DNA from: Acidobacteriota bacterium | GTDB lineage: Bacteria > Bacteroidota > Ignavibacteria > UBA10030 > UBA8401 | NCBI GenBank assembly: GCA_050258555.1 | Contig: JBLMZA010000094.1 | Span: 19,563-83,562, forward strand | DNA: 64,000 nucleotides | Direction of reading: 5' to 3' | Shown here: in pieces, positions 12,371 through 55,761 of the stretch | Layout of the letters: every line of letters begins with the position of its first letter | Numbering within the stretch: the first letter of the stretch is position 1 | The notes under the pieces: model-generated | What the model was told of the DNA's origin: nothing | The model's database searches: none | What the model saw: only the letters and a program-made list of their open reading frames with translations | Program-made: the position numbers and the translations under genes

Positions 12371-12411
12371 CCTTGAAAGCGTGCATGCGAATAAAATTAT
12401 TGGAGACTTTT

Positions 12412-13422
12412 ATGAAACTCAGCATACGAACATGTTCTGCGGTCTTCCTGGCTTCGCTTCTGTGCGCAAGTGCGGGCGTATCGCAAATACAAAAAAAGGC
12501 GCAGGTCGGCTTCCGCTTCCTCGAAAATCCCACGGCCGCCGAAGCCGTGGGCCGGGGCGGCACCGGCATATTGACCACGATGAACTCGAACGCGCTCTTC
12601 TGGAATCCGGCTCTGACCGGCTGGCAAACGAGCGCGGTCGATCTGAGCCTGAATCACACGCGCTACATCGCCGACATCAACTACAGCGCGGGGGCGGCCA
12701 CATTCCGTCTCGGCTCATTCGGCGTCCTGGGCGCGAGCCTGCTCATGATGGATTACGGCACGTTCTACCAGACCTATGCCGTCGACAAGTCGGTCAATGA
12801 GCAGGGGTATGTGGAAACCGGCACATTCTCGCCGAAGTCGTACGCGCTCGGGCTCTCGTTTTCGCAGCAGGTGAGCGACCGCTTCAGCTACGGCGTACAA
12901 CTCAAGTACGTGGCCCAGGATCTGGGCGATGCCTGGGTGGCGCAGGATGTGAACATCGTCGAGCGCGGCTACAAGGCCAACGCCATGGCGCTCGATATCG
13001 GCGCCGTCTATGATTTCGCCTACAAGGGCATCAAGTTCGCCGCGACGATGCAGAACATCTCGAAGGAGATCCGCTATGAAAACGAATCCTTCCCGCTTCC
13101 CTTCGCCGTGAGCTTCGGCGCCTGCGTGCAGCCGCTGACGTTCATCGATGAATCGGATGCGATGAAGGCCTTGATGCTCACCGTCGAGAGCCGCCACCAG
13201 CGCGATTTCGGCGAGAAGCTCAAAGTCGGCGCCGAATACAAGGCGTACGAATTCTTTGCGCTGCGCGCCGGATACATGACGGGCTATGACGAGCGCGGAT
13301 TCACGGCCGGCCTCGGCATCACCTATCCGGTTTCGGGCGTGCCGCTCCGGGCCGACTACGCCTATGAGCCCTTCGGCGTTTTCGGCGGCGTGCATTATCT
13401 TTCGCTCGGCGTGAGCTATTAA
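12412..13422 (+). CDS. FadL/PorV-like outer-membrane beta-barrel protein
   Basis: Signal peptide. The N-terminal hatch-like segment ...AEAVGRGGTG...SNALFWNPALTGW carries the NPA motif typical of FadL/TodX/PorV-family barrels. The sequence has the alternating amphipathic pattern of beta strands and a C-terminal aromatic residue. It is a paralog of the protein at 45286..46236. The start was moved to the ATG at 12412. Confidence 0.5.
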   Translation: MKLSIRTCSAVFLASLLCASAGVSQIQKKAQVGFRFLENPTAAEAVGRGGTGILTTMNSNALFWNPALTGWQTSAVDLSLNHTRYIADINYSAGAATFRLGSFGVLGASLLMMDYGTFYQTYAVDKSVNEQGYVETGTFSPKSYALGLSFSQQVSDRFSYGVQLKYVAQDLGDAWVAQDVNIVERGYKANAMALDIGAVYDFAYKGIKFAATMQNISKEIRYENESFPLPFAVSFGACVQPLTFIDESDAMKALMLTVESRHQRDFGEKLKVGAEYKAYEFFALRAGYMTGYDERGFTAGLGITYPVSGVPLRADYAYEPFGVFGGVHYLSLGVSY

Positions 13423-13453
13423 GGGCGCACGCCCCGCTGTGCTGCATATTGAA

Positions 13454-13506
13454 TGTGACAGCTTTCTTCTGTATCATTGAAGGAATAAGGCTGTCACATT
13501 TTTTTT
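13454..13506 (+). terminator. rho-independent terminator candidate
   Basis: TGTGACAGC (13454-13462) pairs with GCTGTCACA (13490-13498); the loop contains an inner CTTC/GAAG pairing. An 8-nt T run follows at 13499-13506. Confidence 0.5.
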
Positions 13507-13523
13507 GTCGCCCGTGTGCTTTC

Positions 13524-37206: not shown

Positions 37207-38697
37207 CTACGATTCGGCGCGGGAGAATCCCGGCCGCAGATTCACACGGCCGATGATCGAGCGCGCCAGCGCCTTATCAGAAGCCGTAAATGTTTTCATG
37301 AGCAGGAGCGAGACCGCATACGAGGCCGTCGCCAGTGCAGCCGAGGCGACCCACGTGACCGATGCGAGTGCAAGCAGCTCAAGGATGATGATCATCACCA
37401 CGCCCGAGGCGAGCGTCTTCACCTGCGCTCCGATGCGCGCATGTTCAAAGAGGCGCGACGGAATGAGCGCGAGCATGTTGATCATGACAAAGAGCTCGGT
37501 GATGAGCGTGGCGATGGCGGAGCCGATGCCGCCGTTGCCTGCCGAGTGCTGTGCAAAGGGGATGAGAAGATAATTCAATCCCACATTGACGAAGATGGCC
37601 AGGAACGCCGTGCGCGACATCGCTTTCTGCTTGTCCGACGAGAGAAGCACCGTTCCCAGCACGAAATCGATATAGAGCAGCACGACGCCCACAGAAAATA
37701 TTTTCAGGATGAGCACCGAGGGCTCATAGGAGCTGCGTCCGAAAAACAGATGGATGATCTCGGGCGCGAACGAGAAGGCGCCGATGGCCATCGGGACGGC
37801 GGTCATCATGATCGCATCCAGGCTTTTCTGCAGCATGAGGCTCTCGGCCTGGCTGTCGGTGTTCCATTTCCTGCTCATGACCGGAAAGACCGCCACGGTG
37901 AAGATCACCGGCACGACCATGAGCGAATCGAAAAAGCGGTAGGCCGCCGCATACCAGCCCACGACCTGTTCGGGCGTCATGAGCGAGAGCATCACGGTGT
38001 CGATCCGGTAATAGATGACGCCGAAGACGGTGTTGAGAAAATACGGCAGCCCTTCCTTCAGGAGCACGACGGCCTTCTTCCAGTCCACCTTCGGCATCGA
38101 ATCAAAAAGCGCCGGCCGAAAGCGCGTCATCACGAGTGAGGCGCTCACGGTGCCCGAGACGGCGATGAGGGCATAGCCCACGGGACCGACGCCGAAGAGG
38201 AGCGCCGCAATGCCCACGGCCGCAGTCAGCACGGTTTCAGAGACCGCGCCGTAGGACGGATACTTCATGAGATCGGCCCCGCGGTAGCAGTTGCCGATCA
38301 CGCTGTTGTAGCCGCTGGCAAGCGTGCCGAGTCCGAAGATCGCAACGATGAGAATCACCTCCGCCGGATAGCCGACGGCGAAGGCATACCCGAGCATGAG
38401 CGTGAAGGAGGCGGCCCAGAGGAATGCGCGCGCGCCGAGCGAGTTCACGTAGATCGATGCGGTCTCTTCGGGATTTTTGGCCACGGCCTTCATGATCGAA
38501 TAATTGCCGCCGAATTCGATCAGCAGCGCGAAGATGCCGGCTATCGACTGTCCCAGGTAGAGCCGCCCGTAGCCCACCGCTCCCAGACAGCGCGGAAGGA
38601 ACATCATCAGGACCAGCGTGGATGATGTCGTAATGACGCGCGTGAATGAAAGCACCGCCACGTTCTTTGTTACGGATTTTGCCGCCGTGCTGACCAT
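37207..38697 (-). CDS. wzx: Wzx-like polysaccharide flippase (MOP superfamily)
   Basis: About 12-14 transmembrane helices. The N-terminal KNVAVLSFTRVITTSSTLVLMMFL is typical of the polysaccharide biosynthesis protein family. Confidence 0.7.
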   Translation of the reverse strand: MVSTAAKSVTKNVAVLSFTRVITTSSTLVLMMFLPRCLGAVGYGRLYLGQSIAGIFALLIEFGGNYSIMKAVAKNPEETASIYVNSLGARAFLWAASFTLMLGYAFAVGYPAEVILIVAIFGLGTLASGYNSVIGNCYRGADLMKYPSYGAVSETVLTAAVGIAALLFGVGPVGYALIAVSGTVSASLVMTRFRPALFDSMPKVDWKKAVVLLKEGLPYFLNTVFGVIYYRIDTVMLSLMTPEQVVGWYAAAYRFFDSLMVVPVIFTVAVFPVMSRKWNTDSQAESLMLQKSLDAIMMTAVPMAIGAFSFAPEIIHLFFGRSSYEPSVLILKIFSVGVVLLYIDFVLGTVLLSSDKQKAMSRTAFLAIFVNVGLNYLLIPFAQHSAGNGGIGSAIATLITELFVMINMLALIPSRLFEHARIGAQVKTLASGVVMIIILELLALASVTWVASAALATASYAVSLLLMKTFTASDKALARSIIGRVNLRPGFSRAES

Positions 38698-39492: not shown

Positions 39493-40194
39493 TTATGCCG
39501 CGTGTTTGTTTTTCTGAAGGATGATGCAGAATGCCGCCGCCTCATCCGTTCCGATCCTGCCGAATGTGAGCGCGCTGAAGAGCCGGTCGACGGCGCTCCA
39601 GACGGCGTAGAACACGACGCGCCGCTTTTCCGGATGATCGAAGCCGAACGTCTTCGACGACACGACCGACATGCCATGCTTGCGCGCCAGGCGCTCGATG
39701 CGCTTCGGGGCAATCGCCCAGCGGTGAAATGTCACAAACGGATAATTCTCATCCTGTCCCGCCCAGTCGTATCCGGCGATCTTCCGGGCGTAGAAGACGT
39801 GGAACCAGTGCGGCGTGAATTTCGTGATGAGTCCCCGAAGCGTGAACACGTTCGGCGAAGCCATCAGGACGATGCCGCCTTCGTTGACGGTGCGGAAGAA
39901 GTTGATGAGCGCCTTCTCGGGCTCGGGCAGATGCTCGAGCACGTCCCAGCAGACGACCATGTCGTAGGCGTTCTCCGGAAGCCGGTAGGTCTGGATGTCA
40001 CCGACGATCTTCTCGTGCATGTGCGAGTTGCGCTCGAGCTGCTTCAGCGAAATGTCGATGCCGCTTAAGATCGTGCCTTCGGGAAATTGGATGTGGCTTG
40101 CGGAGCCGCAGCCCGCTTCGAGCACGCGCCGGGGATTGCGTCCCGCAAGCAACTGGTCGATGCGCTGTTCGAGTTCAGGGTTGCCTTCGTTCAT
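39493..40194 (-). CDS. class I SAM-dependent methyltransferase
   Basis: Motif I VLEAGCGSA, plus DMVVCWDVLEHL. The start was moved to the ATG at 40194. Confidence 0.7.
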   Translation of the reverse strand: MNEGNPELEQRIDQLLAGRNPRRVLEAGCGSASHIQFPEGTILSGIDISLKQLERNSHMHEKIVGDIQTYRLPENAYDMVVCWDVLEHLPEPEKALINFFRTVNEGGIVLMASPNVFTLRGLITKFTPHWFHVFYARKIAGYDWAGQDENYPFVTFHRWAIAPKRIERLARKHGMSVVSSKTFGFDHPEKRRVVFYAVWSAVDRLFSALTFGRIGTDEAAAFCIILQKNKHAA

Positions 40195-41771
40195 GAGCGT
40201 GTATCCTTTCGTCGGTTGAAAAATGAGTGAACGGTTGTATGCACTTTCTCCTTGGACCACCGGTCGAGAATCTGGATCACTCCCATGAGCGTGCCGAGCA
40301 CGATCATATTGCGGCTGAATGTGAGCTGCATATCGACATAGGAGACGACCATCTGGTTGATGACCGAGATGACGCACATGGCCGAGACGGCCTTCAGGTA
40401 CGGATCATCCATCCGGTGAAAGACAATCGAGCCCTGCGCCACGAGCGCATTGAAGAAAAACCAGAAGAAAAATCCGCCGACGGCCCCCGATTTCACGAAG
40501 ATCCAGAAAATCTGGTTGTGCGGAATGTATTCCGAGAGCGGGAAATCCCCACCCCACGGCCTGAGCGGACGGTCATAGGCCTGGCCGAAGCCGATGCCGC
40601 TGAAGGGCGCGCGGCGGAATGTGACGGCGAGATTGTAATTCTCGGCTTTCCGGTACATCGTCGATTCGACATCCTTGCCGCCTCTGACGCCGGGCTCATC
40701 CATCACGGTGGACTTGAACTGCTGGGCCACATAGCCCAGGCGGCTGTAGCTGTTCCAGAACGCGGCCGTGTAGAGTGAAAAGAGCACGAGAAAGAGCGCC
40801 AGAAACTTCACTGCCGCACGAAGCGGCCCGGAGGGAAGCAGAAACAGCACGCCGACGGCCGAAGCCATTCCGGAGGCGTATGTGGCCCGGCGCTGTCCGG
40901 CAATGAATCCGACAACCAGCGGCAGGAATGCGGCCAGGAGCGCCGTTTTCTGGCGGCTCTTCACTCCCAGCACGAGGAATGTGCCCAGAAGAATGAAAAG
41001 CAGCACCATGAAGAGCGGATCCTCGTGATTGGTGAATGTCTCGATGATCGCAGGCCAGACGCCGAATGAGAAACCGTTTGCGGCATAGTAGGCGGCGCCC
41101 TGGACGGCCTTGATCGTGATGCCCGCAATCAGGACGCCCACGAGCACTTCAAGCTGTGAGCGCGTGCGGATCACCTGCGGCGTGAACCAATAGAGAATCG
41201 CCAGATACAGAAGCGCCCGCACTTCCCAGACGACGACGATCGGATCGGCGCCCGAGGCCAGACCGTGCACGGAGGCCGCAAGAAGCGATGCGAAGCCGAG
41301 CACGGCCGGCACCTTCATGGGAACCGGCATGAAGCCGTATTCGGGATCGACTGCCGCGCGCACCGCCCAGACAAGCACGACGAATGCGATGTGCAGCTCC
41401 ATGAGCGAGACGATCATATAGCGCGGCATGCCGGGAATGAGATTGATGTTGGCGAAATAATTCGCGGCGCCGGTGAAGGGCATGACGTACTTCACGCTGT
41501 GCTGATCGAAAAAGAGCACCGCAAAAATCACGATGTAGAATCCCCACTCGATGCGGAAGAGTGTGAGCGAGAGCACCGCATAGACAAGCACGAGGGCCGC
41601 GCCGGCGGCGACATTGCCGTCTGTCACGATCAGCGTCACGGCAAGCAGGCACGAGAGCACGAGCGAGAGCGCGAGCCAGAGCGAATGCACGAGCCGCTCG
41701 GCGCGCGCATTGGGCGAAAGAAGCCGCCCTGCGGCAATCGAAGAGGAAGATGTCAGTGTGCCTGATGCCAT
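40191..41771 (-). CDS. O-antigen ligase/polymerase family membrane protein (Wzy-like)
   Basis: About 10-12 transmembrane helices with a large periplasmic loop in the Wzy_C position. It lies between the flippase and PCP genes. The track start at 41813 is TTG; the first ATG is at 41771. Confidence 0.55.
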   Translation of the reverse strand: MASGTLTSSSSIAAGRLLSPNARAERLVHSLWLALSLVLSCLLAVTLIVTDGNVAAGAALVLVYAVLSLTLFRIEWGFYIVIFAVLFFDQHSVKYVMPFTGAANYFANINLIPGMPRYMIVSLMELHIAFVVLVWAVRAAVDPEYGFMPVPMKVPAVLGFASLLAASVHGLASGADPIVVVWEVRALLYLAILYWFTPQVIRTRSQLEVLVGVLIAGITIKAVQGAAYYAANGFSFGVWPAIIETFTNHEDPLFMVLLFILLGTFLVLGVKSRQKTALLAAFLPLVVGFIAGQRRATYASGMASAVGVLFLLPSGPLRAAVKFLALFLVLFSLYTAAFWNSYSRLGYVAQQFKSTVMDEPGVRGGKDVESTMYRKAENYNLAVTFRRAPFSGIGFGQAYDRPLRPWGGDFPLSEYIPHNQIFWIFVKSGAVGGFFFWFFFNALVAQGSIVFHRMDDPYLKAVSAMCVISVINQMVVSYVDMQLTFSRNMIVLGTLMGVIQILDRWSKEKVHTTVHSFFNRRKDTRS

Positions 41772-41809
41772 ACGAGTATGAGAGTTCCTGTCGTTTAACA
41801 GTGTGCCGG

Positions 41810-41977
41810 TCAAAAGCCCGGCGGCTTTTCCATCATGTAGAATGCCGTGATGAAGACGGCGAGCTGCGCCAGCGTCAGCAGCGTGACGATCATATATTCC
41901 TTCATGCCCATGTGCGTGCTGCGCTTTCCGATGAAGATGCCGAATGCCATGAGCATCACGACCGCAAGAATCGTCAT
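41810..41977 (-). CDS. small 55-aa two-helix membrane protein (not in ORF track; below size cutoff)
   Basis: The ATG at 41977 is preceded by a strong SD GAGGAGG with an 8-nt spacer. The product MTILAVVMLMAFGIFIGKRSTHMGMKEYMIVTLLTLAQLAVFITAFYMMEKPPGF has two hydrophobic helices. The stop is TGA at 41810-41812. It sits between the BY-kinase-like and Wzy-like genes on the operon strand. Confidence 0.35.
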   Translation of the reverse strand: MTILAVVMLMAFGIFIGKRSTHMGMKEYMIVTLLTLAQLAVFITAFYMMEKPPGF

Positions 41978-42004: not shown

Positions 42005-42826
42005 CTATAACAGATTATGCTTATCCACGCGGTTGAAGACGAATCCGAGCACCTGGCTCTCGTTGAGCGTCGAAAGAAGCCGCTCGACTTCCCGCTCCTT
42101 CGTCTTGCCGGCGTTGACCACGACGATCACGCCGCCGAGCGCGGAGGTGAAGAGCGTCGGTATGGCCGATTCGGTGATCGAGGGAAGATCGACGATCACA
42201 AGCTCGTACGCGTTCTCGAGCGAGAAGAGCACGTTGCGGAATTCCGTCAGCTGCTCGAGGCCCACCGTCGGCTTCAGCGCCTGGGGTGAGGCCGACTTCA
42301 TGCTGTTGATGCGCATCGATTCAAGCGCGTTGTCGGCCGCGCTTCCTGCCGAGAGCACATGCAGATGGTTGATGCGCGTTTTGGCCACGGTGATCTTCGG
42401 CTGATAGAGACTCTCCAGCAGCCCCGGCGCCAGCGGCGTGCCGAAGATCTCGTGGCACTTCGGGCGGCGGATGTTGAGATCGATGAGGAGCGTTTCGCGC
42501 TGATTGGCCATGGCCAGCGATGCGGCCAGATTGGCCGCCACGAGCGTCTTGCCTTCCCCGGGATTGGGACTGGTGATGCCGATCGTCAGCTTCCCGTGCG
42601 AATATTCCTTCGGCAGAAGCGAATACTTGAAGTGATCGTAGAACTGATGATTCACCGTCGAGGCGTCGATCTTGCGCCCGGTGACATGGGAATACACAAT
42701 GGACTTTTCCAGACGCACCAGGCTCCGCGGAATCGCTTCGGCTTCCGCGGCCGGGTTCTCCTCGAAAGCCGCTTCGGACGCAGTCCCTTCGGGCTGTATG
42801 TAGGCATCGAATGGTTTCATGGACAT
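42005..42826 (-). CDS. BY-kinase-like P-loop ATPase (CpsD/Wzc C-terminal domain homolog) lacking a C-terminal tyrosine cluster
   Basis: Walker A ITSPNPGEGKTLVAANLAASLA, Walker A' LLIDLNIRRP and Walker B LVIVDLPS are present. The C-terminus ...NRVDKHNLL has no Tyr residues. Confidence 0.7.
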   Translation of the reverse strand: MSMKPFDAYIQPEGTASEAAFEENPAAEAEAIPRSLVRLEKSIVYSHVTGRKIDASTVNHQFYDHFKYSLLPKEYSHGKLTIGITSPNPGEGKTLVAANLAASLAMANQRETLLIDLNIRRPKCHEIFGTPLAPGLLESLYQPKITVAKTRINHLHVLSAGSAADNALESMRINSMKSASPQALKPTVGLEQLTEFRNVLFSLENAYELVIVDLPSITESAIPTLFTSALGGVIVVVNAGKTKEREVERLLSTLNESQVLGFVFNRVDKHNLL

Positions 42827-42842: not shown

Positions 42843-44252
42843 TCATTCTTTCAGGCGCGAGCGTTCGGGCAGAAACGCGATAATGGGCTTCTGATAGATC
42901 TCGATGGCGCGCGTTGTGCGGATCGTCGTATCAAAGAGTTCGGATAAAATCGCCGTGATGATTCCCAGCAGCAGTCCAAGGCCGACTCCGCCGCCCACAA
43001 TGAGCGCCCGGCTCGGCTTCGAGGGCTGCAGCGGAAGAAGCGGCGGGTCGATGATCGTGAACTGATTGTTGGCCGACTTGCCGATGGCCTGCTGTATCTG
43101 CGCCTCTTCAAGCTTCACCTTCATGCCGTCATAGAGCCGCTGGTAGACGGCGACATCGGACTCTTTTTCCTGTCCCGATGTGCGCGAGGCCCCCAAAATC
43201 TCGCTCATCATCTGCGTGCGCGTGCGGCGCAGATCGGCGGTATGGTTGTCCTGTTTCGCGATTTCCGTCTGCAGTCCGCCGATCATGCGCTCGAGCATTT
43301 CCATGATCGAGGCCTGGACTTTCGCCACTTCCGGATGCTGCATCGTGTAGCGCTCGAGTGCGTCGTCATGCCGCGTGACAAGCGTGCGCAGCTCGCCCGC
43401 ATACGGGATGTCGAGCCTGGAGAGTTCGAAAAGCGTCTGGCGAGCGGACTTCGAGCCCAGGTCTTCGGGCAGCTCGCGGATCATCGCAAGGTCGTGCTTC
43501 AATTCCTTCGTGCGTCCGTCGCTTTCCCGCATCTGGCGCTCGACGTCGTTCAGATAGGCGTTCGCTCCCGGAGTGTCCTGCATCCGGTCGCGCAGTTTCG
43601 GCATCAATTGCTCCTGGCTCTGCTCGAGCTTCTGCCGGAATTCCTCGAGCTTCTGCTCATAGAAGCGCACGGTCACTTCATTGCGCTGATTGTTCGCGAG
43701 CGAGGTGGCCTGGATGAAGAGATCGGCCAGGACCGCTGCGCCGCGCTGCGCGCGGGCAGGATCGTTGTCGGCATAGACGATCGAAAATGATTCGCGCGCC
43801 TGGCGCTGAATCTTGATATTGGACGTGCGGTCATCCACCAGTTTGCGCCGGGAGCGTTCGCTCAGGTTCCGGTATTCGACGCCCAGACTGTCCATGAGCA
43901 TCTCGATTGTCTTGCGGCTGAAGATGATCTCATCGATGAAGCGCAGCGGATCATCCTCCATCTGGTAGACGGGAGCGGCCGATGTCATGCCGCTGATCGG
44001 ATTGGCCACTTCATTGCGCTGCACGAGAATCGACGTCGAGGATTCATACATCCTGGGCAGCTGGAATGCGGCGCCGACGGCGAGCGCCGTCACGACAAGC
44101 GGCGGAATCACCAGAAGCTTGATGCGCCGCCGGATGAGTCCGGAAATGTCACGAAGCGAAAACTGGGATGTCTGCACGATGGATTGTTCCTTTGCGAATA
44201 AATTCTTTTGTATGGCTGCGTTGTGTGAAGACAGTACGCCCAACCTGACCAC
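42843..44252 (-). CDS. polysaccharide co-polymerase (PCP; Wzz/GumC/Wzc N-terminal periplasmic domain) protein
   Basis: N-terminal transmembrane helix (LLVIPPLVVTALAVGAAF), a long coiled-coil periplasmic region, and a C-terminal transmembrane helix (ALIVGGGVGLGLLLGIITAIL). The start is GTG or TTG and is uncertain. Confidence 0.7.
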   Translation of the reverse strand: MVRLGVLSSHNAAIQKNLFAKEQSIVQTSQFSLRDISGLIRRRIKLLVIPPLVVTALAVGAAFQLPRMYESSTSILVQRNEVANPISGMTSAAPVYQMEDDPLRFIDEIIFSRKTIEMLMDSLGVEYRNLSERSRRKLVDDRTSNIKIQRQARESFSIVYADNDPARAQRGAAVLADLFIQATSLANNQRNEVTVRFYEQKLEEFRQKLEQSQEQLMPKLRDRMQDTPGANAYLNDVERQMRESDGRTKELKHDLAMIRELPEDLGSKSARQTLFELSRLDIPYAGELRTLVTRHDDALERYTMQHPEVAKVQASIMEMLERMIGGLQTEIAKQDNHTADLRRTRTQMMSEILGASRTSGQEKESDVAVYQRLYDGMKVKLEEAQIQQAIGKSANNQFTIIDPPLLPLQPSKPSRALIVGGGVGLGLLLGIITAILSELFDTTIRTTRAIEIYQKPIIAFLPERSRLKE

Positions 44253-44541
44253 TGTCGTTCAATTAGTATGCCAAAGCGCGGAAGGACGCCGGCGCTCGTG
44301 AATTCACGGGAAATGCGCGGATCATCATCGGCACGCATGCCGTGATGTGTGTAAAAAGGAAGCAGCTTCGTGCGGCGCGTGTGTAGAATCGGGACAGACC
44401 GGGCCTGCGCACGGCGCCGAAAGCACGGAAGCCGGGCCGGAAATCTGTTTGGCACATTTCTTGAACAGCTTCAGTCATGTGCTTCAAGCCACCGCCATCG
44501 ATGTTTCTCTCACTCATGTGTTTTTTTAGAAAGGTGCGAGC

Positions 44542-45252
44542 GTGCAACAGTATCGACAGTCTCTGCGTACGGCAATCTTCATGCTTCTTCTGGCGCTGTT
44601 CCTGACCGGCTGCTTCAGCCGCAGCGCGGTGCAGGATGAAGCCCTGTTGAAGGCGAATCAATCGCAGTCCGCCAATATCCTCTCCGGCTCCTATGTGCTC
44701 AGGCAGGGAGACCAGGTGAAGCTCTGGGTGATCGAGTATCCCGAATTTGATACGACGGCCGTGATCAGCGAGACGGGCACGATTCCGGTGAAACTGCTCG
44801 GCGAGGTGCATCTGGAGGGATTGACCAAAAACGAGGCGATCGCCATGCTGCGCGAGCGCATCGGCGTCTATGCCCGCAGCCGCAGCCTGAGCCTGGGGAT
44901 GACCGTGCTGACCGGGACGAGCGCGAAGCTCGTCATTCTGGGCGCTGTGGCGCGACAAGATACATTCGCGCTCACATCTCCCATTTCGCTGCTTGAGGCG
45001 ATTGCCGCCTCGGGCGGCACGCAGCCCGATTCCGATCTCCGGCGCATCAAGGTCTTCCGGCGTGATTCGGATGCGGGCCCGGTCGAGGTCGATCTGACGC
45101 GCTATTTTGCCACGGGCAATATTCGGGAAGTGCCCACCATCGGTCCCGGCGACATTGTGTATGTGCCGCGGGAGGAGAATTTCATCCGCGAGTTTTCGGG
45201 ATATCTGCGCGATACGCTTTTCCTCTTCGGGTTATTTTCGATTTCGCGCTAG
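44542..45252 (+). CDS. short Wza-like outer-membrane polysaccharide export (OPX) lipoprotein lacking the C-terminal OM-spanning helix
   Basis: Lipobox LTGC. Poly_export motif YVLRQGDQVKLWV. SLBB-like segment PGDIVYVP. Only 236 aa (E. coli Wza is 379 aa). GTG start at 44542 with an AAAGG RBS. Confidence 0.7.
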   Translation: MQQYRQSLRTAIFMLLLALFLTGCFSRSAVQDEALLKANQSQSANILSGSYVLRQGDQVKLWVIEYPEFDTTAVISETGTIPVKLLGEVHLEGLTKNEAIAMLRERIGVYARSRSLSLGMTVLTGTSAKLVILGAVARQDTFALTSPISLLEAIAASGGTQPDSDLRRIKVFRRDSDAGPVEVDLTRYFATGNIREVPTIGPGDIVYVPREENFIREFSGYLRDTLFLFGLFSISR

Positions 45253-45285
45253 CGCGTGTGTATGCGGACGACAGGAGAACAATCA

Positions 45286-46236
45286 ATGTATTCGAAGCTC
45301 AGACCATTCATGCGACTGCGGTGTTCAATCAGACAGGCGGCAATGCTCCTGTGTATCTCATGGTGTGTAAATTTGCTCCATGCGCAGGAAGCCTCCGAGC
45401 TCTCATTCCGCTACGGGCTGGCGTCGGCGCGCAGCGTCGCGCTCGGAGAAGCCCTGGTGGCCGATACGCGCGATCTTTCAAGCGCGATCGCCAATCCCGC
45501 CAGTCTGCTCTTTCTGGAGCGCCTTTCGGTCTCCGCCACCGCCGGCATGAGGACCGATAACCGATCGCTGCGTTCGGCCGTCTCGATGCCGATAGCGGCC
45601 ACAGACCGCTTTGTGCTGGCCATTGGAGGCGAGGGGGCATTTTTCGATGCCGATGACTGGTCGGCGCAGAAAGGGAAGATGGCGGGCTTTGAAGCGTCCT
45701 CTGCCGTGCGGCTCTTCGGAGCATTCAGCTTCGGCATGATCTATGACTTCCGCTACACCGAATTCGGCGCCACGCGCCTTTCCAGCCACTCGGGCGGCAT
45801 GGGACTGATGTATTCGGTCCTTCCTGCGCTTTCCTACGGGGTTTCATTCACGGGATTCGGCTCGGGCATCCAATTGAAGCGCGCCGCGGACGGCGCTCCC
45901 TTCCTGGTGAAGGAATCGAATATCCCGCGCTCGGTCACATTCGGCGCGTCGTGGCGATATCCGGCCACGTATGGAAGGAAACTCGTTGAAGTGCATCTCT
46001 CGAACCAGAGCATCAGCGGGGTGGAGCGCCTGGTCTACCGCCTTGGCGCCGAATTTTTCCCGTGGAAATTTCTTGTCGTGCGCGGAGGCATCGTCTCCGG
46101 ACCCGTGACGGCCATGGGCCGCGCGGGCATCGGCATACACACGGGCGTCGTTGATATCGATTACGGTGTGGCCTCCAGCACGGCCGCCGAGCGTCTGCAT
46201 GTGCTGAGCATTGTTGTACCGCTGGAATTCCCTTGA
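45286..46236 (+). CDS. FadL/PorV-like outer-membrane beta-barrel protein (candidate polysaccharide-export porin)
   Basis: Signal peptide. The N-terminus ...ALGEALVADTRDLSSAIANPASLLF has a hatch-like NPA motif, and the sequence shows the amphipathic beta-strand pattern. It is a paralog of 12412..13422 (shared RAG..G..AG.GI...DY...H.LS..V C-terminus). The ATG at 45286 has a GGAGA RBS. Confidence 0.5.
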   Translation: MYSKLRPFMRLRCSIRQAAMLLCISWCVNLLHAQEASELSFRYGLASARSVALGEALVADTRDLSSAIANPASLLFLERLSVSATAGMRTDNRSLRSAVSMPIAATDRFVLAIGGEGAFFDADDWSAQKGKMAGFEASSAVRLFGAFSFGMIYDFRYTEFGATRLSSHSGGMGLMYSVLPALSYGVSFTGFGSGIQLKRAADGAPFLVKESNIPRSVTFGASWRYPATYGRKLVEVHLSNQSISGVERLVYRLGAEFFPWKFLVVRGGIVSGPVTAMGRAGIGIHTGVVDIDYGVASSTAAERLHVLSIVVPLEFP

Positions 46237-46275: not shown

Positions 46276-47070
46276 ATGGAATCCATACATTCAATCGTCG
46301 ATCAGGATCTTGATATCGTCCGCAGCGCCGCCATGCAGGAAGTGCTCAGGACGATGGAACGCATTGCAGCCAGCGACCTTTCCGTCATCATCGTCGGAGA
46401 ACAGGGAACAGGAAAGGAGTGGGCCGCGCGCTTCATTCACCGCATCAGCAGCCGCGCGCACGGACCGTTTTTGCCGTTCGATTGCGGTGCGCTCTCGGCC
46501 GAAGCGATGGAAAAGGAACTCTTCGGGTACGAGGCCGTCACGCGCGATGGCGTGATCTACCGGCGCGGCGCCTTGGAGGAAGCCGACGGCGGCACGCTGC
46601 TCGTCAATGAGCTCTCCTCGCTGCCCCTGCCGGCACAGATGAAGATGGCCCGCGCGCTCGAATACCAGACCATGACGCGCGTGGGGGGCGATGCGATCAT
46701 ACACATCCATACGCGCATCATCGGAACGCTCTCGCGCCACCCGGAAGCGCTCATGGAAGAAGGCGCGCTCATGAAGGACATGTATTACCGCATCAGTCCG
46801 ATCGTCATCGAACTGCCGGCCCTCAGGGACCGAAGAGAGGATATACCGCTTTTGATCAGAAAATTTTTGCGCGAACTGCGCACGCGCTACAATTCTCCGG
46901 TCGTGGGCATCGCGCCCGATGCCGCCGAGCTCTGCCAGGCCTACAACTGGCCCGGCAACATCCGGCATCTGAAAAATGCGATCGAATACGCCGCGGTGAT
47001 GTCGTCCGGAAAATGGATTGAAGCCGAGCATCTGCCGGCGTATCTGCGGCAGGCGAAAGACGGAGTTTAA
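46276..47070 (+). CDS. sigma-54-activator-like AAA+ protein, degenerate (no GAFTGA, Walker B D-to-N, no HTH, no receiver)
   Basis: Walker A GEQGTGKE. ELFGYEAVTRDG replaces ELFGHEKGAFTGA. GGTLLVNEL replaces GGTLFLDEI. PGNIRHL is retained. The protein ends at 264 aa with no Fis-type HTH. Confidence 0.6.
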   Translation: MESIHSIVDQDLDIVRSAAMQEVLRTMERIAASDLSVIIVGEQGTGKEWAARFIHRISSRAHGPFLPFDCGALSAEAMEKELFGYEAVTRDGVIYRRGALEEADGGTLLVNELSSLPLPAQMKMARALEYQTMTRVGGDAIIHIHTRIIGTLSRHPEALMEEGALMKDMYYRISPIVIELPALRDRREDIPLLIRKFLRELRTRYNSPVVGIAPDAAELCQAYNWPGNIRHLKNAIEYAAVMSSGKWIEAEHLPAYLRQAKDGV

Positions 47071-47130: not shown

Positions 47131-47161
47131 TGGTGCTGTCGAAACATGTACGACAGCACCA
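47131..47161 (+). promoter_or_regulatory. perfect 11-bp inverted repeat TGGTGCTGTCG-N9-CGACAGCACCA (candidate operator/UAS)
   Basis: Arms at 47131-47141 and 47151-47161. It resembles the NtrC-type TGCACC/GGTGCA half-site logic. It lies 117 nt upstream of the wecA-like start. Confidence 0.4.
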
Positions 47162-47277
47162 TAGAGAATTCATGCGGCAGCGTCGGCAACCACCAGAAAG
47201 AGGCGACACGTCAAGGGCTTCTTTTTTTTCGCGTTCGGGGGGCGGGCTGTTGGTATCGTGTCAATGAGGAGGGTGTG

Positions 47278-49302
47278 ATGGTCATGCATTTGTTGATTGC
47301 CTTTGCGGCATCGGTTGTGATGTCGCTCGTGCTGACGCCGGCAGTGATGAAGCTTGCCTCGGCAGTCGGAGCGATGGATTATCCCAACGCGCGCAAGGTC
47401 CACACGACGGCGATGCCGAGGCTGGGCGGCGCCGCCATCTGCGCGAGCTTCTTCATTTCGTTTTTCGTGCTGGCGGTGATCGAGCCCGCGGTCTTCCTCG
47501 ACTCCTGGCTCTCGACGGCCGAAGGCATCTCGCTTGCCGCCGTGCTGCTTCTGGTGCTCTCGCTCGGCATCTGGGATGATATCGAGCCGCTCATGCCCTC
47601 GCAGAAATTCGTCGTGCAGCTGCTCTTGAGCACGATCATCTATCTGGCGGGATTCCGCATCTCCGTCATCAGCCTTCCTCTGGTGAGCGAGCCCGTGGCG
47701 GTCGGCTTCCTTGATTATCCGCTGACGATGATGTGGATGATCGGCATCACCAATGCCATCAATCTCATCGACGGGCTGGACGGCCTGGCCAGCGGCGTCT
47801 CCACCATCGCCTTTCTCACGGTCTTTCCCATTGCCATGTTCAATGGCGATATGGGCACCGCCTGCATGGCGCTTCTGCTTTCGGGCGCGCTTCTGGGCTT
47901 CCTGCGCTACAACTTCAATCCCGCGCGCATCTTCCTGGGCGACTCGGGAAGCCTCTTCCTGGGCTTTGCGCTGTCGGTGCTTTCCATACACAGTTCGACC
48001 AAGGGATCGGCCGCGTTCGCCATTGTCGTGCCGATTCTCGCGCTCGGACTGCCGATCATGGACACGTTCTTATCGATGGCGCGCCGGCTCCTGCGCTCGT
48101 TCCTTCCCGATCAGCCGAAGACCGAGTCGCTCGTGCATAAGCTGAAGTCGATGTTCCAGCCGGATAAAAGCCACATCCATCACCGCCTCATTGCGCGCGG
48201 ACTCTCGCACCGCAACGCCGTGCTGGTGCTCTACGCGATCTCGTGCGCGCTCGGACTGGGCGCCTTTTTGCTCACGGTCTCGAGCAGCCGCATTGCCGGC
48301 TTCGTGCTGGCGGCCGTCGGCGCCGCCACGGTGATCGGCGTGCGCCAGCTGCGCTACAAGGAGATGGCCGTGCTCCAGAACGGCGTCCTCCTTCCGCTCT
48401 ATGACAGGCCGATCATGAACCGGGAGGCGCTCCTGGTGTTTTTCGATGTGGCGTTCATCGTCGTCTCCTTCGGCGCTTCGAGCTATATTGCCGGAAAGCT
48501 CTATGCCATCCCGCAGTCCGACGCCGCGTTCATGGAACTGACGGCCGGCGTCACCATCGTGCAGCTGGCGATCTTCTGGGCCTCGGGCCTCTACCGCGGC
48601 ACATTCCGGCTCATCGGACTCGGCGATGTGCTCCGCACAATGAAAAGCACGTCGCTTGCCGCGCTTGGGACCGGCTTTGGCATCTGGATGCTGTCGGCGC
48701 CGCTGAGGGCCGATCAGGTGGTGATGCTGGTGCTCGATTTTTATTTCCTCATGACGTTCGTCGTGGGATTCCGCGTGTCGTTCCGCGTGCTGCAGTATCT
48801 GTCGCATCAGGATATCCGGGAAGGCCGCCATGTGCTGCTCTACGGCGCAGATCAGAGCGGCATCGTGACGCTCGAGCGGATTCTGGATTCGAATGCGACG
48901 ACCGATACGCCGATCGGATTTCTGGATGATGACACGACGCTCGAGGGCAAATCGCTCAACGGGTATCCGATCTTCGGAGGCCATTGGAAGCTCCCGTATC
49001 TCATGCGCACCATCGGCGTCGATGAGATCGTGCTGTGCTCCGATTCGATCAAGGAGGAGTCGCTCCGGCGGCTTCGCGCCGCGGCCGGAGAATACCGCAT
49101 TCCGATCAAGCGGCTTCGCATCCTGATCGAGGAATACCATGCCGAGGAGCGCAAAGGCGCGGTCGGGCAGACAGCCGCCATTGTGGTTGGTCCGGAGGCG
49201 GATGCGCGCGAGGACGAGGCGCATGCGGGCGTGACGGAGCAGCGGGTGCATCGGCTTGGAAAAGGCGTGAAGGTGCCGCACATGAAATCGAAATTCGCAT
49301 AG
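47278..49302 (+). CDS. polyprenyl-phosphate N-acetylhexosamine-1-phosphate transferase (WecA/MraY family) fused to a C-terminal 4TM + Rossmann-like (CoA_binding_3-type) module
   Basis: The WecA signatures NAINLIDGLDGLA and DKSHIHHRL are in the first ~350 aa. Four more transmembrane helices follow, then RHVLLYGADQSG...PIGFLDDD...GYPIFGG, which resembles the non-catalytic N-terminal module of WbaP/CapD-type proteins. The ATG at 47278 has a GGAGGG RBS. Confidence 0.65.
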   Translation: MVMHLLIAFAASVVMSLVLTPAVMKLASAVGAMDYPNARKVHTTAMPRLGGAAICASFFISFFVLAVIEPAVFLDSWLSTAEGISLAAVLLLVLSLGIWDDIEPLMPSQKFVVQLLLSTIIYLAGFRISVISLPLVSEPVAVGFLDYPLTMMWMIGITNAINLIDGLDGLASGVSTIAFLTVFPIAMFNGDMGTACMALLLSGALLGFLRYNFNPARIFLGDSGSLFLGFALSVLSIHSSTKGSAAFAIVVPILALGLPIMDTFLSMARRLLRSFLPDQPKTESLVHKLKSMFQPDKSHIHHRLIARGLSHRNAVLVLYAISCALGLGAFLLTVSSSRIAGFVLAAVGAATVIGVRQLRYKEMAVLQNGVLLPLYDRPIMNREALLVFFDVAFIVVSFGASSYIAGKLYAIPQSDAAFMELTAGVTIVQLAIFWASGLYRGTFRLIGLGDVLRTMKSTSLAALGTGFGIWMLSAPLRADQVVMLVLDFYFLMTFVVGFRVSFRVLQYLSHQDIREGRHVLLYGADQSGIVTLERILDSNATTDTPIGFLDDDTTLEGKSLNGYPIFGGHWKLPYLMRTIGVDEIVLCSDSIKEESLRRLRAAAGEYRIPIKRLRILIEEYHAEERKGAVGQTAAIVVGPEADAREDEAHAGVTEQRVHRLGKGVKVPHMKSKFA

Positions 49303-49303
49303 C

Positions 49304-51241
49304 ATGAACACCTTTAACACCATAGTGCTGCATGTGGCGGCCTTCTTTGCGCTGTGCGCGGCGCCGTTCGAGGTCTCCGCACAGGCACGCCCGATGTGGA
49401 TCACGGCCTATTATCCCTGGTGGTACTACAACCAGATGCCGGTCGAAGAGGTGGATTTCTCGCTCATGACGCATGTCGTGGTCTTCTCGGCCAATCCCTC
49501 GCGCACGCCGCCCTATCTTGACGTGCTTGTGAATGCACGCGACAGCGCCAATGTCGTCAACGGCGTCGACTGCGGACGTCCGGGCGATTATCTGCGGCAG
49601 CTTGTCCGGCGCGCGCACGAGAAGGGCGTCAAGGTCGTGCTCTCGGTGGGCGGCATCTGGGGGGAAGGCGCCGATGCCATGCATTACATCGCCGGCGATG
49701 ACGCGCGCATCGAGACATTCGTGCGCGCCTCGTGCGCGTTTGCCCGGCGCTGGAATCTGGACGGCATCGAACTCGACTGGGAATTTCCGCAGTTTGCCGA
49801 CAAGTGGCGCCACAACAAACTCATCTACCGCTTCCGCTCGGAACTCGATGGGTGGACTCCGCGCGGGATCTTCATCGCCGCCGTCCACGAGTCCCCGCTT
49901 CCGGCATACGACAAAAATGCGATGTGCGCGGCCTTCGACCAGATCAATCCGATGACCTATGAACTCTACCGGGGCGATTACTCCAAGAACCTCACCGGAT
50001 ACAACGGTCCCATCGAGCAGTCGTCGCGCTACGCGCCGTATATCGGCACCTCGATCAACCAGAAGGGACACGGTCCGCGCTCATGGATCGACGATGGCTA
50101 TCCGGCATCGAAGATCGGGCTGAGCGTCTCGTTTACGACGACCGTCTTCACGGGCGTCGAGCCTCCGGTCGAACCCTCGCGCCCCTACAAGGAACATCAA
50201 TGGGGCAATGTGCGCGACATTCCGCGGCGCGGCCGCCACTGGGATCACTCGTCACAGGTCCCATGGTTCGCCGACGGAACGACATTCATTTCCTATGAAG
50301 ACACGGCGAGCTCACGGCTCAAAGTCGAGTATGCCAGAGCGCTCGGTCTCGGCGGCGTCATGGTCTACGAACTCGGAGCGGGCTATCTTCCTTCCGAAAA
50401 ACCGGGCCGAAGGGACGTGCTGCTCCAGGCCGTTTCGCGCGCGGCACGCTCAACGACCCGGCCGCTCGGCGATCTCACGCCCAAGACCGCCGACCGCGAG
50501 GCGCCGAAGGTCTCGATCCTGTCTCCCAAAGACCGGGCGCGCGTCACCGGTCCGGTCACATTCAAAGCCGACGCGAAGGATAACCGCGGCGTTGCCGCGC
50601 TGCGTTTCTTCATAGACGGCGTCGCCTACGGATCCGTCTCTGAAGATGTGCCCGCGGTCTCGCCGCCTCTGAACACATGGAGACTCTCCAACGGCACGCA
50701 CACGATCCGCGCTGAGGCGGTCGATGATGCGAATAACAAGGGCAGTGCGCAGATCACGATCACAGTCGCCAATTCTGGCGCGCCGCCCTCGTTCGAGGAC
50801 CTCGTCGTGTATGACGAGAAACTCCGCGCTCCGTTTATCGATGCCTCCTGGGGCGTGAAGAATTCATTCGCCGATGTGTCGCATGCGCGGACGGGAAGCC
50901 GCGCCATCAAAGTCGAATACGGAGCGCACGGCGCGCTCTGGCTCCAGTATGGCGCCTGGGGAGAGGAACAGAAACTCTATCCGACCGACTATACCGAATT
51001 GGCGTTCGACGCCTTTCCTTCGGAATCGTTCACGCTCGAGATTGTCTTTTCCAACAACACGTCTGAGACGCTGAGGCTTGAAGCCGGAAAGTGGAATTCG
51101 TGCGCGGTGCCGGTCACGGGCTCCGGAGCGTTCACGAAATTCTACTTCCGGCGCGATCTTCCCGGCAGCGCGACCGTGTATTATGACAACATCCGGCTGA
51201 AAGCCGCTCAGCCGTTGACACATGCCGCACGGGGAAAATAA
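49304..51241 (+). CDS. secreted GH18-family protein with variant catalytic motif (DGIELDWE) plus Ig-like and C-terminal beta-sandwich domains
   Basis: Signal peptide. GH18 (beta/alpha)8 motifs SVGGIWG...LDGIELDWEFP...MTYELY. A Big-like segment follows, then a galactose-binding-like C-terminus. The start is 2 nt after the upstream stop. Confidence 0.7.
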   Translation: MNTFNTIVLHVAAFFALCAAPFEVSAQARPMWITAYYPWWYYNQMPVEEVDFSLMTHVVVFSANPSRTPPYLDVLVNARDSANVVNGVDCGRPGDYLRQLVRRAHEKGVKVVLSVGGIWGEGADAMHYIAGDDARIETFVRASCAFARRWNLDGIELDWEFPQFADKWRHNKLIYRFRSELDGWTPRGIFIAAVHESPLPAYDKNAMCAAFDQINPMTYELYRGDYSKNLTGYNGPIEQSSRYAPYIGTSINQKGHGPRSWIDDGYPASKIGLSVSFTTTVFTGVEPPVEPSRPYKEHQWGNVRDIPRRGRHWDHSSQVPWFADGTTFISYEDTASSRLKVEYARALGLGGVMVYELGAGYLPSEKPGRRDVLLQAVSRAARSTTRPLGDLTPKTADREAPKVSILSPKDRARVTGPVTFKADAKDNRGVAALRFFIDGVAYGSVSEDVPAVSPPLNTWRLSNGTHTIRAEAVDDANNKGSAQITITVANSGAPPSFEDLVVYDEKLRAPFIDASWGVKNSFADVSHARTGSRAIKVEYGAHGALWLQYGAWGEEQKLYPTDYTELAFDAFPSESFTLEIVFSNNTSETLRLEAGKWNSCAVPVTGSGAFTKFYFRRDLPGSATVYYDNIRLKAAQPLTHAARGK

Positions 51242-51263
51242 TCATGTTCAGAAAGGATATGCC

Positions 51264-54653: not shown

Positions 54654-55691
54654 TCAGGAAATATTGAGCGCGTTCAGTTTGTTGTGCAGCGTCTTGCGGC
54701 TGATGCCGAGAATCTTGGCTGCGGCCGATTTGTTCTGCTCGACCGAAGCGAGCGTCTGATTGATCACGATGCGCTCCACGGTTTCAAGCGATGTGCCCAG
54801 GGGGATCGAGACGGTGAGCGGCCGCGGCTTGTTCTTCGAGATGCGCTCGGGCAGGTGCCGGATGGAAATCATGCGTTCGGGGCACATGAGCACGAGTCCT
54901 TCGATGAGGTTGCGCAGTTCGCGCACATTGCCCGGCCAGTCGAAGTTCGAGAGCATCTCCATCGCCTCGGGAGCGATGCTCTTGCGCGGCTGCTCGTATT
55001 TTTTGCCGAAGTAGGAAAGGAAGTGATTGGCAAGCAGCGGCACATCTTCCCTGCGGGCGCGAAGGGGCGGCACCACCAGTTCGATCACGCTCAGACGGTA
55101 GAAGAGGTCCTCCCTGAATTCGCCCGCTTCGATCGCCCTGGGGATATCCTTATTGGTGGCGGCCACGACACGCACATCGACCGTGACTTCCTCTTTGCCG
55201 CCGAGGCGCCGGAAGGCCTTGGTCTCGATGGCGCGCAGGAGCTTCGCCTGCGTCTGCGGATGCATCTCGGCGATCTCATCGAGAAAGAGCGTGCCGCCGT
55301 CGGCAAGCTCGAAGCATCCGGATTTCTTTGAGATGGCGCCTGTGAAGGCTTCCTTCTCATGGCCGAAGAGCTCGTTGTCGATCACGTCCTTGGGAAGCGC
55401 TGCGGCGTTGATGGCGATAAAGGGGGCGCCGGCCCGGTTGCTGGCGGCATGGATGTACTGGGCGATCACTTCCTTGCCCGAGCCGCTTTCGCCCGTGACG
55501 AGCACCGATGCCGGCGAGTTGGCGATCAGTTCGATTGTCGAGATCATGTCGCGGATCACCGGGCTTTCCGAGAGGAACACGGGCAGTGAACGATCGGAAG
55601 CCGGGACGCCCTGCGCCTGGCGCGTGGCGGAGAGCTCGTGATGCATCATGGGAGCGCCTTTCCGCATTTGAAGAGGTGATTGTGCACTCAT
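54654..55691 (-). CDS. sigma-54-dependent transcriptional activator (AAA+ plus Fis-type HTH, no N-terminal sensory/receiver domain)
   Basis: GESGSGKE, ELFGHEKEAFTGA, GGTLFLDEIAEM and GNVRELRN are all present. The C-terminal HTH is AAKILGISRKTLHNKL. The start was taken as the ATG at 55691; the track start at 55712 is TTG. Confidence 0.8.
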   Translation of the reverse strand: MSAQSPLQMRKGAPMMHHELSATRQAQGVPASDRSLPVFLSESPVIRDMISTIELIANSPASVLVTGESGSGKEVIAQYIHAASNRAGAPFIAINAAALPKDVIDNELFGHEKEAFTGAISKKSGCFELADGGTLFLDEIAEMHPQTQAKLLRAIETKAFRRLGGKEEVTVDVRVVAATNKDIPRAIEAGEFREDLFYRLSVIELVVPPLRARREDVPLLANHFLSYFGKKYEQPRKSIAPEAMEMLSNFDWPGNVRELRNLIEGLVLMCPERMISIRHLPERISKNKPRPLTVSIPLGTSLETVERIVINQTLASVEQNKSAAAKILGISRKTLHNKLNALNIS

Positions 55692-55761
55692 ATATCCGGA
55701 ACCTGGTTTCAAGAAACATGTGTATACGGCGCGCGCTGCTCGGCCCTGTGAACGACGGCTC

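Follow-up and report, generated by a model that had tools for sequence, protein, structure and literature searches.

A short polysaccharide export lipoprotein coupled to a FadL/PorV-fold barrel probably forms the outer-membrane exit of a Wzx/Wzy pathway

How does a polysaccharide cross the outer membrane when the member of the outer-membrane polysaccharide export (OPX) family in its pathway lacks a Wza-type pore? This is a current question, and the only worked examples are the 18-stranded porins of Myxococcus and the barrel that PslD makes by itself. We address it here with two adjacent genes, one encoding a short OPX lipoprotein and the other an outer-membrane beta-barrel, in a stretch of 64,000 nucleotides (positions 19,563 to 83,562 of contig JBLMZA010000094.1, assembly GCA_050258555.1), hereafter called the window. 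Our main finding is that the two genes are strictly coupled wherever related loci could be read, and that the pair is probably where a slime-polysaccharide pathway leaves through the outer membrane, with a barrel type that has not previously been linked to such export. The features of the pair, in amino acids (aa) where lengths are given and with domain limits taken from AlphaFold2 (AF2) models where stated, are as follows.

44450..44464 (+): TGGCACATTTCTTGA, promoter element (-24/-12) of the sigma-54 type, lying about 80 nt upstream of the OPX start
44542..45252 (+): OPX lipoprotein, 236 aa; Pfam Poly_export, SLBB_2 and SLBB, all above gathering thresholds
44611-44613 (+): Cys24 of the OPX lipobox (LTG before C24); the OPX has a signal peptide
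44689-44880 (+): OPX domain D1/PES, residues 50-113 in the AF2 model
44893-45171 (+): OPX domain D2/SLBB, residues 118-210 in the AF2 model
45175..45249 (+): OPX C-terminal tail, ENFIREFSGYLRDTLFLFGLFSISR, 25 residues, with a helix predicted at residues 214-235 (conservation, AF2)
45286..46236 (+): FadL/PorV-fold outer-membrane barrel, 316 aa (AF2, Foldseek); its open reading frame (ORF) opens at GTG 45256
45286-45387 (+): barrel signal peptide, ending in LHA before Q
45388-45525 (+): N-terminal hatch of the barrel, with NPA at 45493-45501
45526-46221 (+): barrel body

The original prediction, made from the letters of the window, had read the first gene as a Wza homologue of 236 aa composed of Poly_export and one SLBB domain, and we recovered the same ORF with these Pfam domains (Poly_export, PF02563, 46.3 bits for a cutoff of 28; SLBB_2, 36.2 bits for a cutoff of 27). 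The lipoprotein signal that characterizes the OPX family is present, G23-C24 being invariant across 21 OPX homologues. The AF2 model has a pLDDT of 81, and the top solved structures matching it in Foldseek are the Class-3 OPX WzaB (9n9a) and Wza (2j58). Against Wza 2j58 the OPX profile gives E = 1.7e-41, and it is D1-D2 alone that align (hhalign probability 99%).

Within this aligned region the OPX differs from Wza at one telling place. The profile alignment shows a deletion of 11 residues that coincides exactly with 'TPAGQYRSSSD', the loop of Wza on which the Tyr110 gate is found. The protein is consequently devoid of the beta1-beta2 loop and Tyr110 gating ring of Class-1 (Wza-like) OPX proteins, and has instead the truncated gating loop by which Class-3 is defined (PMC12819527, section 8). 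According to Mellouk et al. 2026, loss of the Tyr110 loop is a hallmark of Class-3 OPX proteins and implies gating by a partner barrel (PMC12819527, section 8). The possibility that a full-length Wza lies nearby, which the original prediction had named as fatal to its proposal, was looked into, and no second OPX is encoded in the 64-kb window.

The C terminus departs from what had been expected. The original prediction held that the OPX has no C-terminal helix able to span the outer membrane, and that a porin is needed for that reason; as stated, this premise is wrong. No Wza_C or GfcC domain, the two that Class-3 proteins are expected to lack (Saidi 2022, Mellouk 2026), is detectable in the OPX with Pfam, yet 25 conserved helical residues follow the SLBB domain. 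No other part of the protein is as well conserved, even among homologues with as little as 35% overall identity, with N213, R216, E217, S219, R223, D224, F229 and F232 invariant. AF2 predicts a helix over residues 214-235 (pLDDT 65-74), with nothing between it and the last SLBB strand; the tail begins right after 'DIVYVP', just as helix D4 of Wza begins after 'DVVYVT'.

Beyond this position, the tail and D4 differ in several respects. Only 28 residues follow 'VYV' in the OPX and 35 in Wza, so that the tail is 7 residues shorter; the predicted helix has 22 residues, for about 34-35 aa in D4 (2J58, 326-359). hhalign returned no alignment of the tail with D4 when the OPX profile was compared with E. 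coli Wza, and the isolated 29-residue tail has no Pfam match at E<=10. The composition is also different. The first 13 residues are strongly amphipathic, while the last 12 are strongly hydrophobic and rich in Phe: in 9-residue windows the mean hydrophobicity of the distal tail reaches 2.0-2.6, as compared to at most 1.2 anywhere in D4. Because of these hydrophobic windows, the distal tail looks like an anchor or a docking element rather than the lining of a water-filled pore. Its conserved, Phe-rich end recalls the porin-docking motif Phe203-Phe204 of WzaB, a tail that is needed for binding of WzpB and for secretion (PMC12819527, section 13).

The second gene most likely starts at ATG 45286, judging from its homologues and from a GGAG upstream. 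Its product was described in the original prediction as a FadL-like barrel with an N-terminal NPA hatch, and structure prediction bears this out. The hatch (residues 35-80, about 45 residues) carries the motif SARSVALG-A-VAD...NPASL, in which N70-P71-A72 is invariant in every barrel alignment made. In the AF2 model, built from ten sequences (pLDDT 83, pTM 0.77), short helices over residues 48-76 are followed by DSSP strand elements over residues 81-312. The strands, counted on the DSSP string and not on the model coordinates, would number 14 if 182-199 and 205-224 are taken as one long hairpin. The top Foldseek matches in the PDB are E. coli FadL, TbuX/TodX and PorV (6h3i_F, 8gl6_F), with E from 3e-9 to 1e-7; among solved structures none has a higher TM-score than PorV (0.62). 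PgaA (4y25), a porin for polysaccharide, comes at rank 48 with a TM-score of 0.37, and AlgE is absent from the 50 matches listed. The protein is not a generic OmpA-like barrel of eight strands, an outcome that would have told against the original prediction. It has the predicted 14 strands and the NPA-bearing N-terminal hatch of FadL/TodX, and not the 16-18 strands and hatchless, AlgE/PgaA-like fold of Wzp, EpsX and ExoB.

The barrel was also compared with curated families. It has no Pfam match in the protein search of the window, and with the NCBIfam model PorV_fam (NF033709) it scores 31.4 bits, below the curated cutoff of 90. All of the 33 barrel relatives sampled match PorV_fam at E<0.01 (best 3.7e-27), and 14 of 33 family members match Pfam Toluene_X, which the window barrel does not. 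An exhaustive HMMER search collected 804 cluster representatives of the barrel at E<=1e-3 (174 at E<=1e-10), nearly all of 300-330 aa.

The two proteins are tied together by gene order. Related loci were reached from both sides: the barrel adjoins the 3' side of the OPX gene, overlapping it or at a distance of at most 81 bp, in all the loci found with the barrel (L001-L005), and the same adjacency holds in all those found with the OPX (L006-L010). Close homologues of the barrel are few, about nine in an index of 5.8 billion proteins, and all contigs that carry them show the order OPX, barrel, sigma-54-type AAA+ gene. OPX homologues at 35-43% identity, on a Gracilimonas metagenome-assembled genome (MAG) and on metagenome contigs, stand in the same cassette, where the next gene encodes a protein of about 320 aa that has no annotation and aligns with the window barrel at 23-27% identity. 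In the loci found with the OPX, identity falls to 31-39% for the OPX and to 23-27% for the barrel, the hatch motif being retained. A paired outer-membrane barrel gene, another mark of Class-3, is thus found in the window and in every related locus that has sequence at this place.

A scan with two motifs derived from the tail over 185,579 GTDB species genomes, one per species, recovered only 14 OPX loci. They belong to MAGs of Bacteroidota, Ignavibacteria, Balneolaceae, Balneola and Chitinophagaceae, and to the cultured Gracilimonas amylolytica LA399 (locus on NZ_PQBS01000040), and an ORF of the barrel family comes directly after the OPX in 13 of the 13 with downstream sequence. Two controls delimit this association. 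P0033, a more distant OPX that lacks the tail motif, is without a barrel of this kind in its neighborhood. Conversely, no OPX lies close to P0009, a distant PorV-like protein of Elusimicrobia, which makes the link to OPX a property of this barrel clade. The pairing of OPX and barrel is conserved across Ignavibacteria, Balneolales and other Bacteroidota.

Two irregular loci deserve mention. L017 has its barrel ORF in two pieces (6690-7572), and in L024 (5980-7580) OPX and barrel are both split. These splits are probably assembly frameshifts, pseudogenization being the alternative; that the OPX is split as well in L024 points to the former. As for the origin of the window, an NCBI OPX 100% identical to ours (P0010) is labeled 'MAG: Acidobacteriota bacterium', and the cassette has relatives in Bacteroidota, Ignavibacteria or Balneolales only. 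Considering these relatives and the type IX secretion system (T9SS) features of the window, the Acidobacteriota bin label may be wrong.

What do the two proteins do together? Domain content, predicted folds, the gating-loop deletion, conservation of the tail, strict gene coupling and a shared promoter are all directly supported; physical interaction of OPX and barrel, oligomeric state, and exit of the polymer through the barrel or under its control are what we infer. With confidence somewhat short of even, we propose that OPX and barrel make up one outer-membrane complex of a sigma-54-controlled Wzx/Wzy exopolysaccharide (EPS) pathway. The OPX lipoprotein, which carries no Tyr-ring gate, would form a periplasmic D1-D2 ring atop the co-polymerase. 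The conserved helix at the OPX C terminus would anchor this ring in the outer membrane and dock to the adjacent barrel of FadL/PorV fold, as an enlarged counterpart of the Phe-Phe tail by which WzaB docks to WzpB. The barrel would be the stable membrane-spanning partner, and its conserved NPA hatch the gate. A complex with an anchoring or docking tail is favored because of the gene coupling, the missing OPX gate, the near-invariance of the tail, and the Phe-rich, non-amphipathic character of its distal half. The WzaB match of the OPX model, the confidently modelled FadL/PorV fold of the barrel, the complete Wzx/Wzy pathway around the pair, the lack of a second OPX in the window and the conserved promoter speak for it too. 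Of the two-protein secretion channel imagined in the original prediction, the functional pairing survives (adjacency, missing gate, Phe-rich C terminus), while its no-helix premise does not, and its Myxococcus parallel is an analogy.

The share of the barrel in this complex is a separate matter. The hydrophobic tail and the absence of an OPX gate argue for the barrel as conduit or gate. A more specific version, in which the plugged, predicted 14-stranded barrel is itself the gated Wzx/Wzy exit channel and is opened by the Phe-rich helices of the OPX ring, seems to us possible but not likely. If true, it would be a fourth translocon architecture, after the helical barrel of Wza, the pairing of a Class-3 OPX and a porin of 16-18 strands, and the parallel-strand barrel of PslD, and it would give the FadL superfamily a new, non-lipid class of substrate.

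Several observations weigh against the complex as we picture it. The plug, the small size of the barrel and its Gly/Ser-rich putative lumen argue for an adaptor role: putative lumen-facing residues, taken by the parity of their positions, are mostly Gly, Ser and other small residues, which fits a permanently plugged barrel. Known polysaccharide porins have 16-18 strands and no hatch, unlike this barrel. The FadL-fold barrels PorV, PorQ and BamG of Bacteroidota serve as adaptors and do not conduct substrates (PMC12611786). In the OPX, the tail is placed as D4 is in Wza, and its 22 helical residues are enough to cross the membrane core. Moreover, PslD demonstrates that the C terminus of a short OPX can make a pore alone (PMC13434223), and Schwabe et al. 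suggested that those short OPX proteins of Bacteroidetes that end in a helix function in the manner of Wza (PMC9601211). Two further expectations brought nothing. A cationic lumen, or a net charge suited to an anionic (pyruvylated) polymer, was not found, K+R being about equal to D+E across the barrel family. The idea that conserved periplasmic turns provide a docking surface was dropped, for across the broad family it is the hatch and the strands S7 and S10-S14 that are conserved, and not the turns.

The main rival reading is a self-sufficient OPX, eight tails of which would form the exit pore, either as a Wza-like helical barrel or as a PslD-like strand barrel, with the adjacent FadL/PorV-fold protein serving not as conduit of the polymer but as adaptor, assembly, stabilizing or gating subunit, in the way of PorV, PorQ and BamG with their partners. 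This is possible, if less than probable. The predicted helix 214-235 follows the last SLBB strand exactly as D4 does in Wza, and the invariant pairs R216-E217 and R223-D224 lie one heptad apart, in a manner compatible with parallel packing of helices. The group of 535 short OPX proteins with a C-terminal helix for which Schwabe et al. proposed this function is mostly from Bacteroidetes (PMC9601211), and in PslD it is an outer-membrane pore that the C terminus makes (PMC13434223). BamG offers a precedent for the other half of the scheme, as a FadL-family barrel that acts as structural adaptor and holds the lipoprotein BamH (PMC12611786), and the barrel studied here retains a conserved plug. On the other hand, the distal tail LFLFGLFSI is uniformly hydrophobic and offers no clean polar face to a hydrophilic channel; the tail is, as seen above, shorter than D4, cannot be aligned with it and has no match to Wza_C; and the OPX has lost its own Tyr-ring gate. 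Finally, considerable sequence variation has been reported among D4 helices (PMC9603273), in contrast to the near-invariance of the present tail.

An unlikely alternative is that the barrel serves a purpose other than polysaccharide export and is just co-expressed with the EPS genes. It could be a FadL-type channel for a hydrophobic molecule, such as a lipid carrier product or a signal, or a PorQ/PorV-like anchor of the T9SS, serving for instance the glycoside hydrolase family 18 (GH18) proteins of the locus. Its membership of the FadL/PorV superfamily is in line with this, and so is the fact that the GH18 genes are conserved in the same operon. The organism does use the T9SS, as seen from a type-A C-terminal sorting domain on a GH18 protein (8722-10125) and from a second barrel of the PorV family. 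Yet the coupling is specifically to the OPX, at 0-81 bp in all loci, while the GH18 genes shift position and strand. No T9SS C-terminal domain was detected on the operon partners of the barrel (OPX, AAA+ protein, phosphoglycosyl transferase, GH18 enzymes). The loops assigned as extracellular in the barrel model are short (2-9 residues) and unconserved, unlike the extended loop by which PorV, in our reading of 6H3I, would engage SprA. The Elusimicrobia protein P0009, distant and PorV-like, does not sit beside an OPX either.

Chance adjacency or an annotation error with no functional barrel gene, for which one might invoke the lack of a Pfam match in the window barrel and the split ORFs of L017 and L024, is effectively refuted by the confident barrel model, by the 804 related cluster representatives and by synteny kept across Ignavibacteria, Balneolales and other Bacteroidota, and the L024 case, where the OPX is split too, suggests assembly frameshifts.

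The second barrel lies some distance from the export genes, in the following neighborhood.

10166-12370 (+): protein of 734 aa with a weak T9SS-type C-terminal domain, upstream of the second barrel
12373..13422 (+): second, canonical PorV/PorQ-family barrel, PorV_fam 169 bits (cutoff 90)

The original prediction took this barrel for a clear paralogue of the OPX-linked one. It is rather a distant superfamily relative, with 25% identity over 167 aa (pairwise E = 4e-5), which the family profile finds at 7e-16. The prediction further saw here a type-B cargo protein with a PorP/SprF-like partner. The C-terminal domain of the 734-aa protein resembles, always weakly and below cutoffs, those of PorZ (1e-6), PorU, type A and CHU_C (0.0055), being nearer to the first three; CHU_C, the type-B domain (TIGR04131/CHU_C), reaches 16.6-17.2 bits for a cutoff of 27. 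The barrel itself scores 169 bits with PorV_fam, as against 23.4 bits with PorP_SprF and 25.8 bits with Pfam PorV. The type-B pairing for 10166-13422 was therefore rejected, and our guess is that a PorZ-PorQ-like anchor pair describes it better. The broader suggestion that one barrel family serves two secretion contexts in the window is true at the level of the PorV/PorQ superfamily and fails below it, given the low identity just mentioned. Two neighbors of this pair may be noted. The GH18 protein at 8722-10125, the third in the window, has a clear T9SS type-A sorting domain, and the gene directly after the second barrel (13449-14609, +) encodes a Laminin_G_3 (concanavalin-like) domain fused to a VanZ-like membrane domain.

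The OPX and barrel genes belong to a Wzx/Wzy locus of about 35 kb that encodes a complete pathway. Glycosyltransferases, pyruvyl transferase, aminotransferase, epimerase, Wzx, WecG, Wzy, a BY-kinase-like ATPase and the co-polymerase are on the minus strand; OPX, barrel, AAA+ protein, a WecA-type phosphoglycosyl transferase and two GH18 proteins are on the plus strand. The features discussed below are these, Wzy_EPS, pepcterm_TyrKin, eps_fam, pepcterm_ChnLen and ECA_wecA being NCBIfam models.

37207..38697 (-): Wzx-type flippase; Pfam Polysacc_synt, Polysacc_synt_3 and MurJ
40191..41813 (-): Wzy-type polymerase; Pfam Wzy_C, Wzy_EPS 76.8 bits
41810..41977 (-): small hydrophobic ORF of 55 aa, flanked by wzy and the kinase-like gene
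42005..42826 (-): P-loop ATPase, BY-kinase-like and encoded separately; below cutoff with pepcterm_TyrKin (105 bits) and with eps_fam (79 bits)
42843..44252 (-): polysaccharide co-polymerase (Wzz and GNVR), divergent from the OPX gene; pepcterm_ChnLen 154.7 bits, below cutoff
46276..47070 (+): sigma-54-activator-like AAA+ protein; Pfam Sigma54_activat and AAA_lid_14 only
47146..49302 (+): initiating phosphoglycosyl transferase, WecA/MraY-type GT4 with CoA_binding_3; Glycos_transf_4 135 bits, ECA_wecA 120 bits
49304-51241 and 51222-53579 (+): two GH18 (chitinase-like) proteins in the EPS operon
54654..55712 (-): complete sigma-54 activator, AAA+ with EAFTGA loop and HTH_8 (Pfam, alignment)
55762-56496: response regulator adjacent to the complete activator

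From its promoter, the export operon appears to depend on RpoN. The element upstream of the OPX reads TGGCAC-N5-TTG in the window, and TGG[CT]A[CT]-N5-TTG occurs at the equivalent site in 19 of 20 related loci. Two genes of the sigma-54 activator type lie within the locus. The one whose position directly after the barrel is conserved (46276..47070) has no receiver domain, no helix-turn-helix and no GAFTGA loop: where the complete activator has 'HEKEAFTGA' it has 'YEAVTRDGV', and the degenerate form is shared by all relatives aligned. This degenerate protein may modulate the true activator.

Other genes of the locus have peculiarities of their own. In the initiating transferase, the GT4 domain is unusually fused to a CoA_binding_3 region at the C terminus, and the protein is 645-718 aa long in all relatives; the usual home of that region is in WbaP/WcaJ-type transferases. 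The BY-kinase-like ATPase is a polypeptide separate from the co-polymerase, and has a Walker A motif GEGKT; as tyrosine is absent from its final 18 residues, it may have a regulatory role of the pseudokinase kind, as PslE does. A gene of 55-56 aa is called at the position of the small ORF in L001, L008 and L010 also, and the sequence of the small ORF suggests two transmembrane segments. The two GH18 genes of the EPS operon are kept among relatives, Gracilimonas included. These genes and the initiating enzyme of WecA type hint at a GlcNAc-containing polymer with dedicated trimming enzymes.

Why had such a pair escaped notice? The screen of Schwabe et al. removed barrels with fewer than 16 strands (PMC9601211), so that pairs of this kind fell into the class 'short OPX without a barrel'. 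That a short OPX has a barrel or a helix and not both, as the reported dichotomy has it, may be in part an artefact of this filter. FadL and PorV are not mentioned in Schwabe et al. (PMC9601211) or in Saidi et al. (PMC9603273), and among open-access papers and preprints we found none that links FadL/PorV-type barrels to OPX polysaccharide export. The locus would present a partner of a third kind, namely a small barrel of FadL/PorV fold in strict coupling with a distinctive tail of the OPX, and possibly a fourth job for the FadL-fold adaptor barrels of this phylum beside those of PorV, PorQ and BamG. As it has a cultured carrier, G. amylolytica LA399, the hypothesis is testable.

How, then, does the pair compare with known systems? 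With PorV, PorQ and BamG, each of which is thought to serve a partner with no membrane domain of its own, the barrel shares its fold. It differs from them in being smaller (about 280 mature residues), in the brevity of its extracellular-assigned loops, in its PorV_fam score (31 bits for a cutoff of 90), and in being encoded in an EPS operon beside an OPX rather than with T9SS or BAM genes. With E. coli Wza (Class-1, 2J58), the OPX has in common a homologous D1-D2, the lipoprotein nature and a C-terminal helix directly after the last SLBB domain; it has neither D3 nor the Tyr110 loop, and its tail is shorter, distally more hydrophobic and impossible to align with D4. E. coli wza has no adjacent FadL-like barrel, unlike the OPX of the window.

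For short OPX proteins, the literature offers three routes through the outer membrane: docking by Phe-Phe to an 18-stranded porin (PMC12819527), a Wza-like helix, proposed for short Bacteroidetes proteins that have a helix at the C terminus and no barrel coupled to them (PMC9601211), and the strand barrel of PslD (PMC13434223). The short Bacteroidetes OPX proteins of Schwabe et al. resemble ours in size class (<=280 aa), phylum-level lineage and C-terminal helix; the clade of the window is distinguished by a strictly coupled barrel, of fewer than 16 strands. PslD of P. aeruginosa (256 aa, two periplasmic domains; PMC13434223) is likewise a short OPX in which the outer membrane is dealt with by a C-terminal segment other than D4. 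The tail of PslD forms a parallel beta-barrel by itself, and no partner barrel is reported, whereas the tail described here is predicted to be helical and always comes with a barrel gene.

A close parallel is with the Class-3 OPX/porin translocons of Myxococcus xanthus, WzaB-WzpB, EpsY-EpsX and ExoA-ExoB (PMC9601211, PMC9603273, PMC12819527). There, as in the window, a short lipoprotein OPX consists of D1-D2, lacks the Tyr-ring loop and has a barrel gene immediately downstream, in a Wzx/Wzy context with a co-polymerase; the OPX C terminus has conserved aromatic (Phe) residues in both, and WzaB is the top structural match. The differences concern all three of barrel, tail and lineage. The Myxococcus porins are 18-stranded and AlgE/PgaA-like, the window barrel has a FadL/PorV fold of 14 predicted strands with an NPA hatch; WzaB has a bare Phe-Phe end, the window OPX a conserved helical tail of 25 residues; and the window pair belongs to the FCB group (Fibrobacteres, Chlorobi and Bacteroidetes). 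To call the window pair 'Class-3 OPX + Wzp porin' is therefore to draw an analogy, not to assign a membership.

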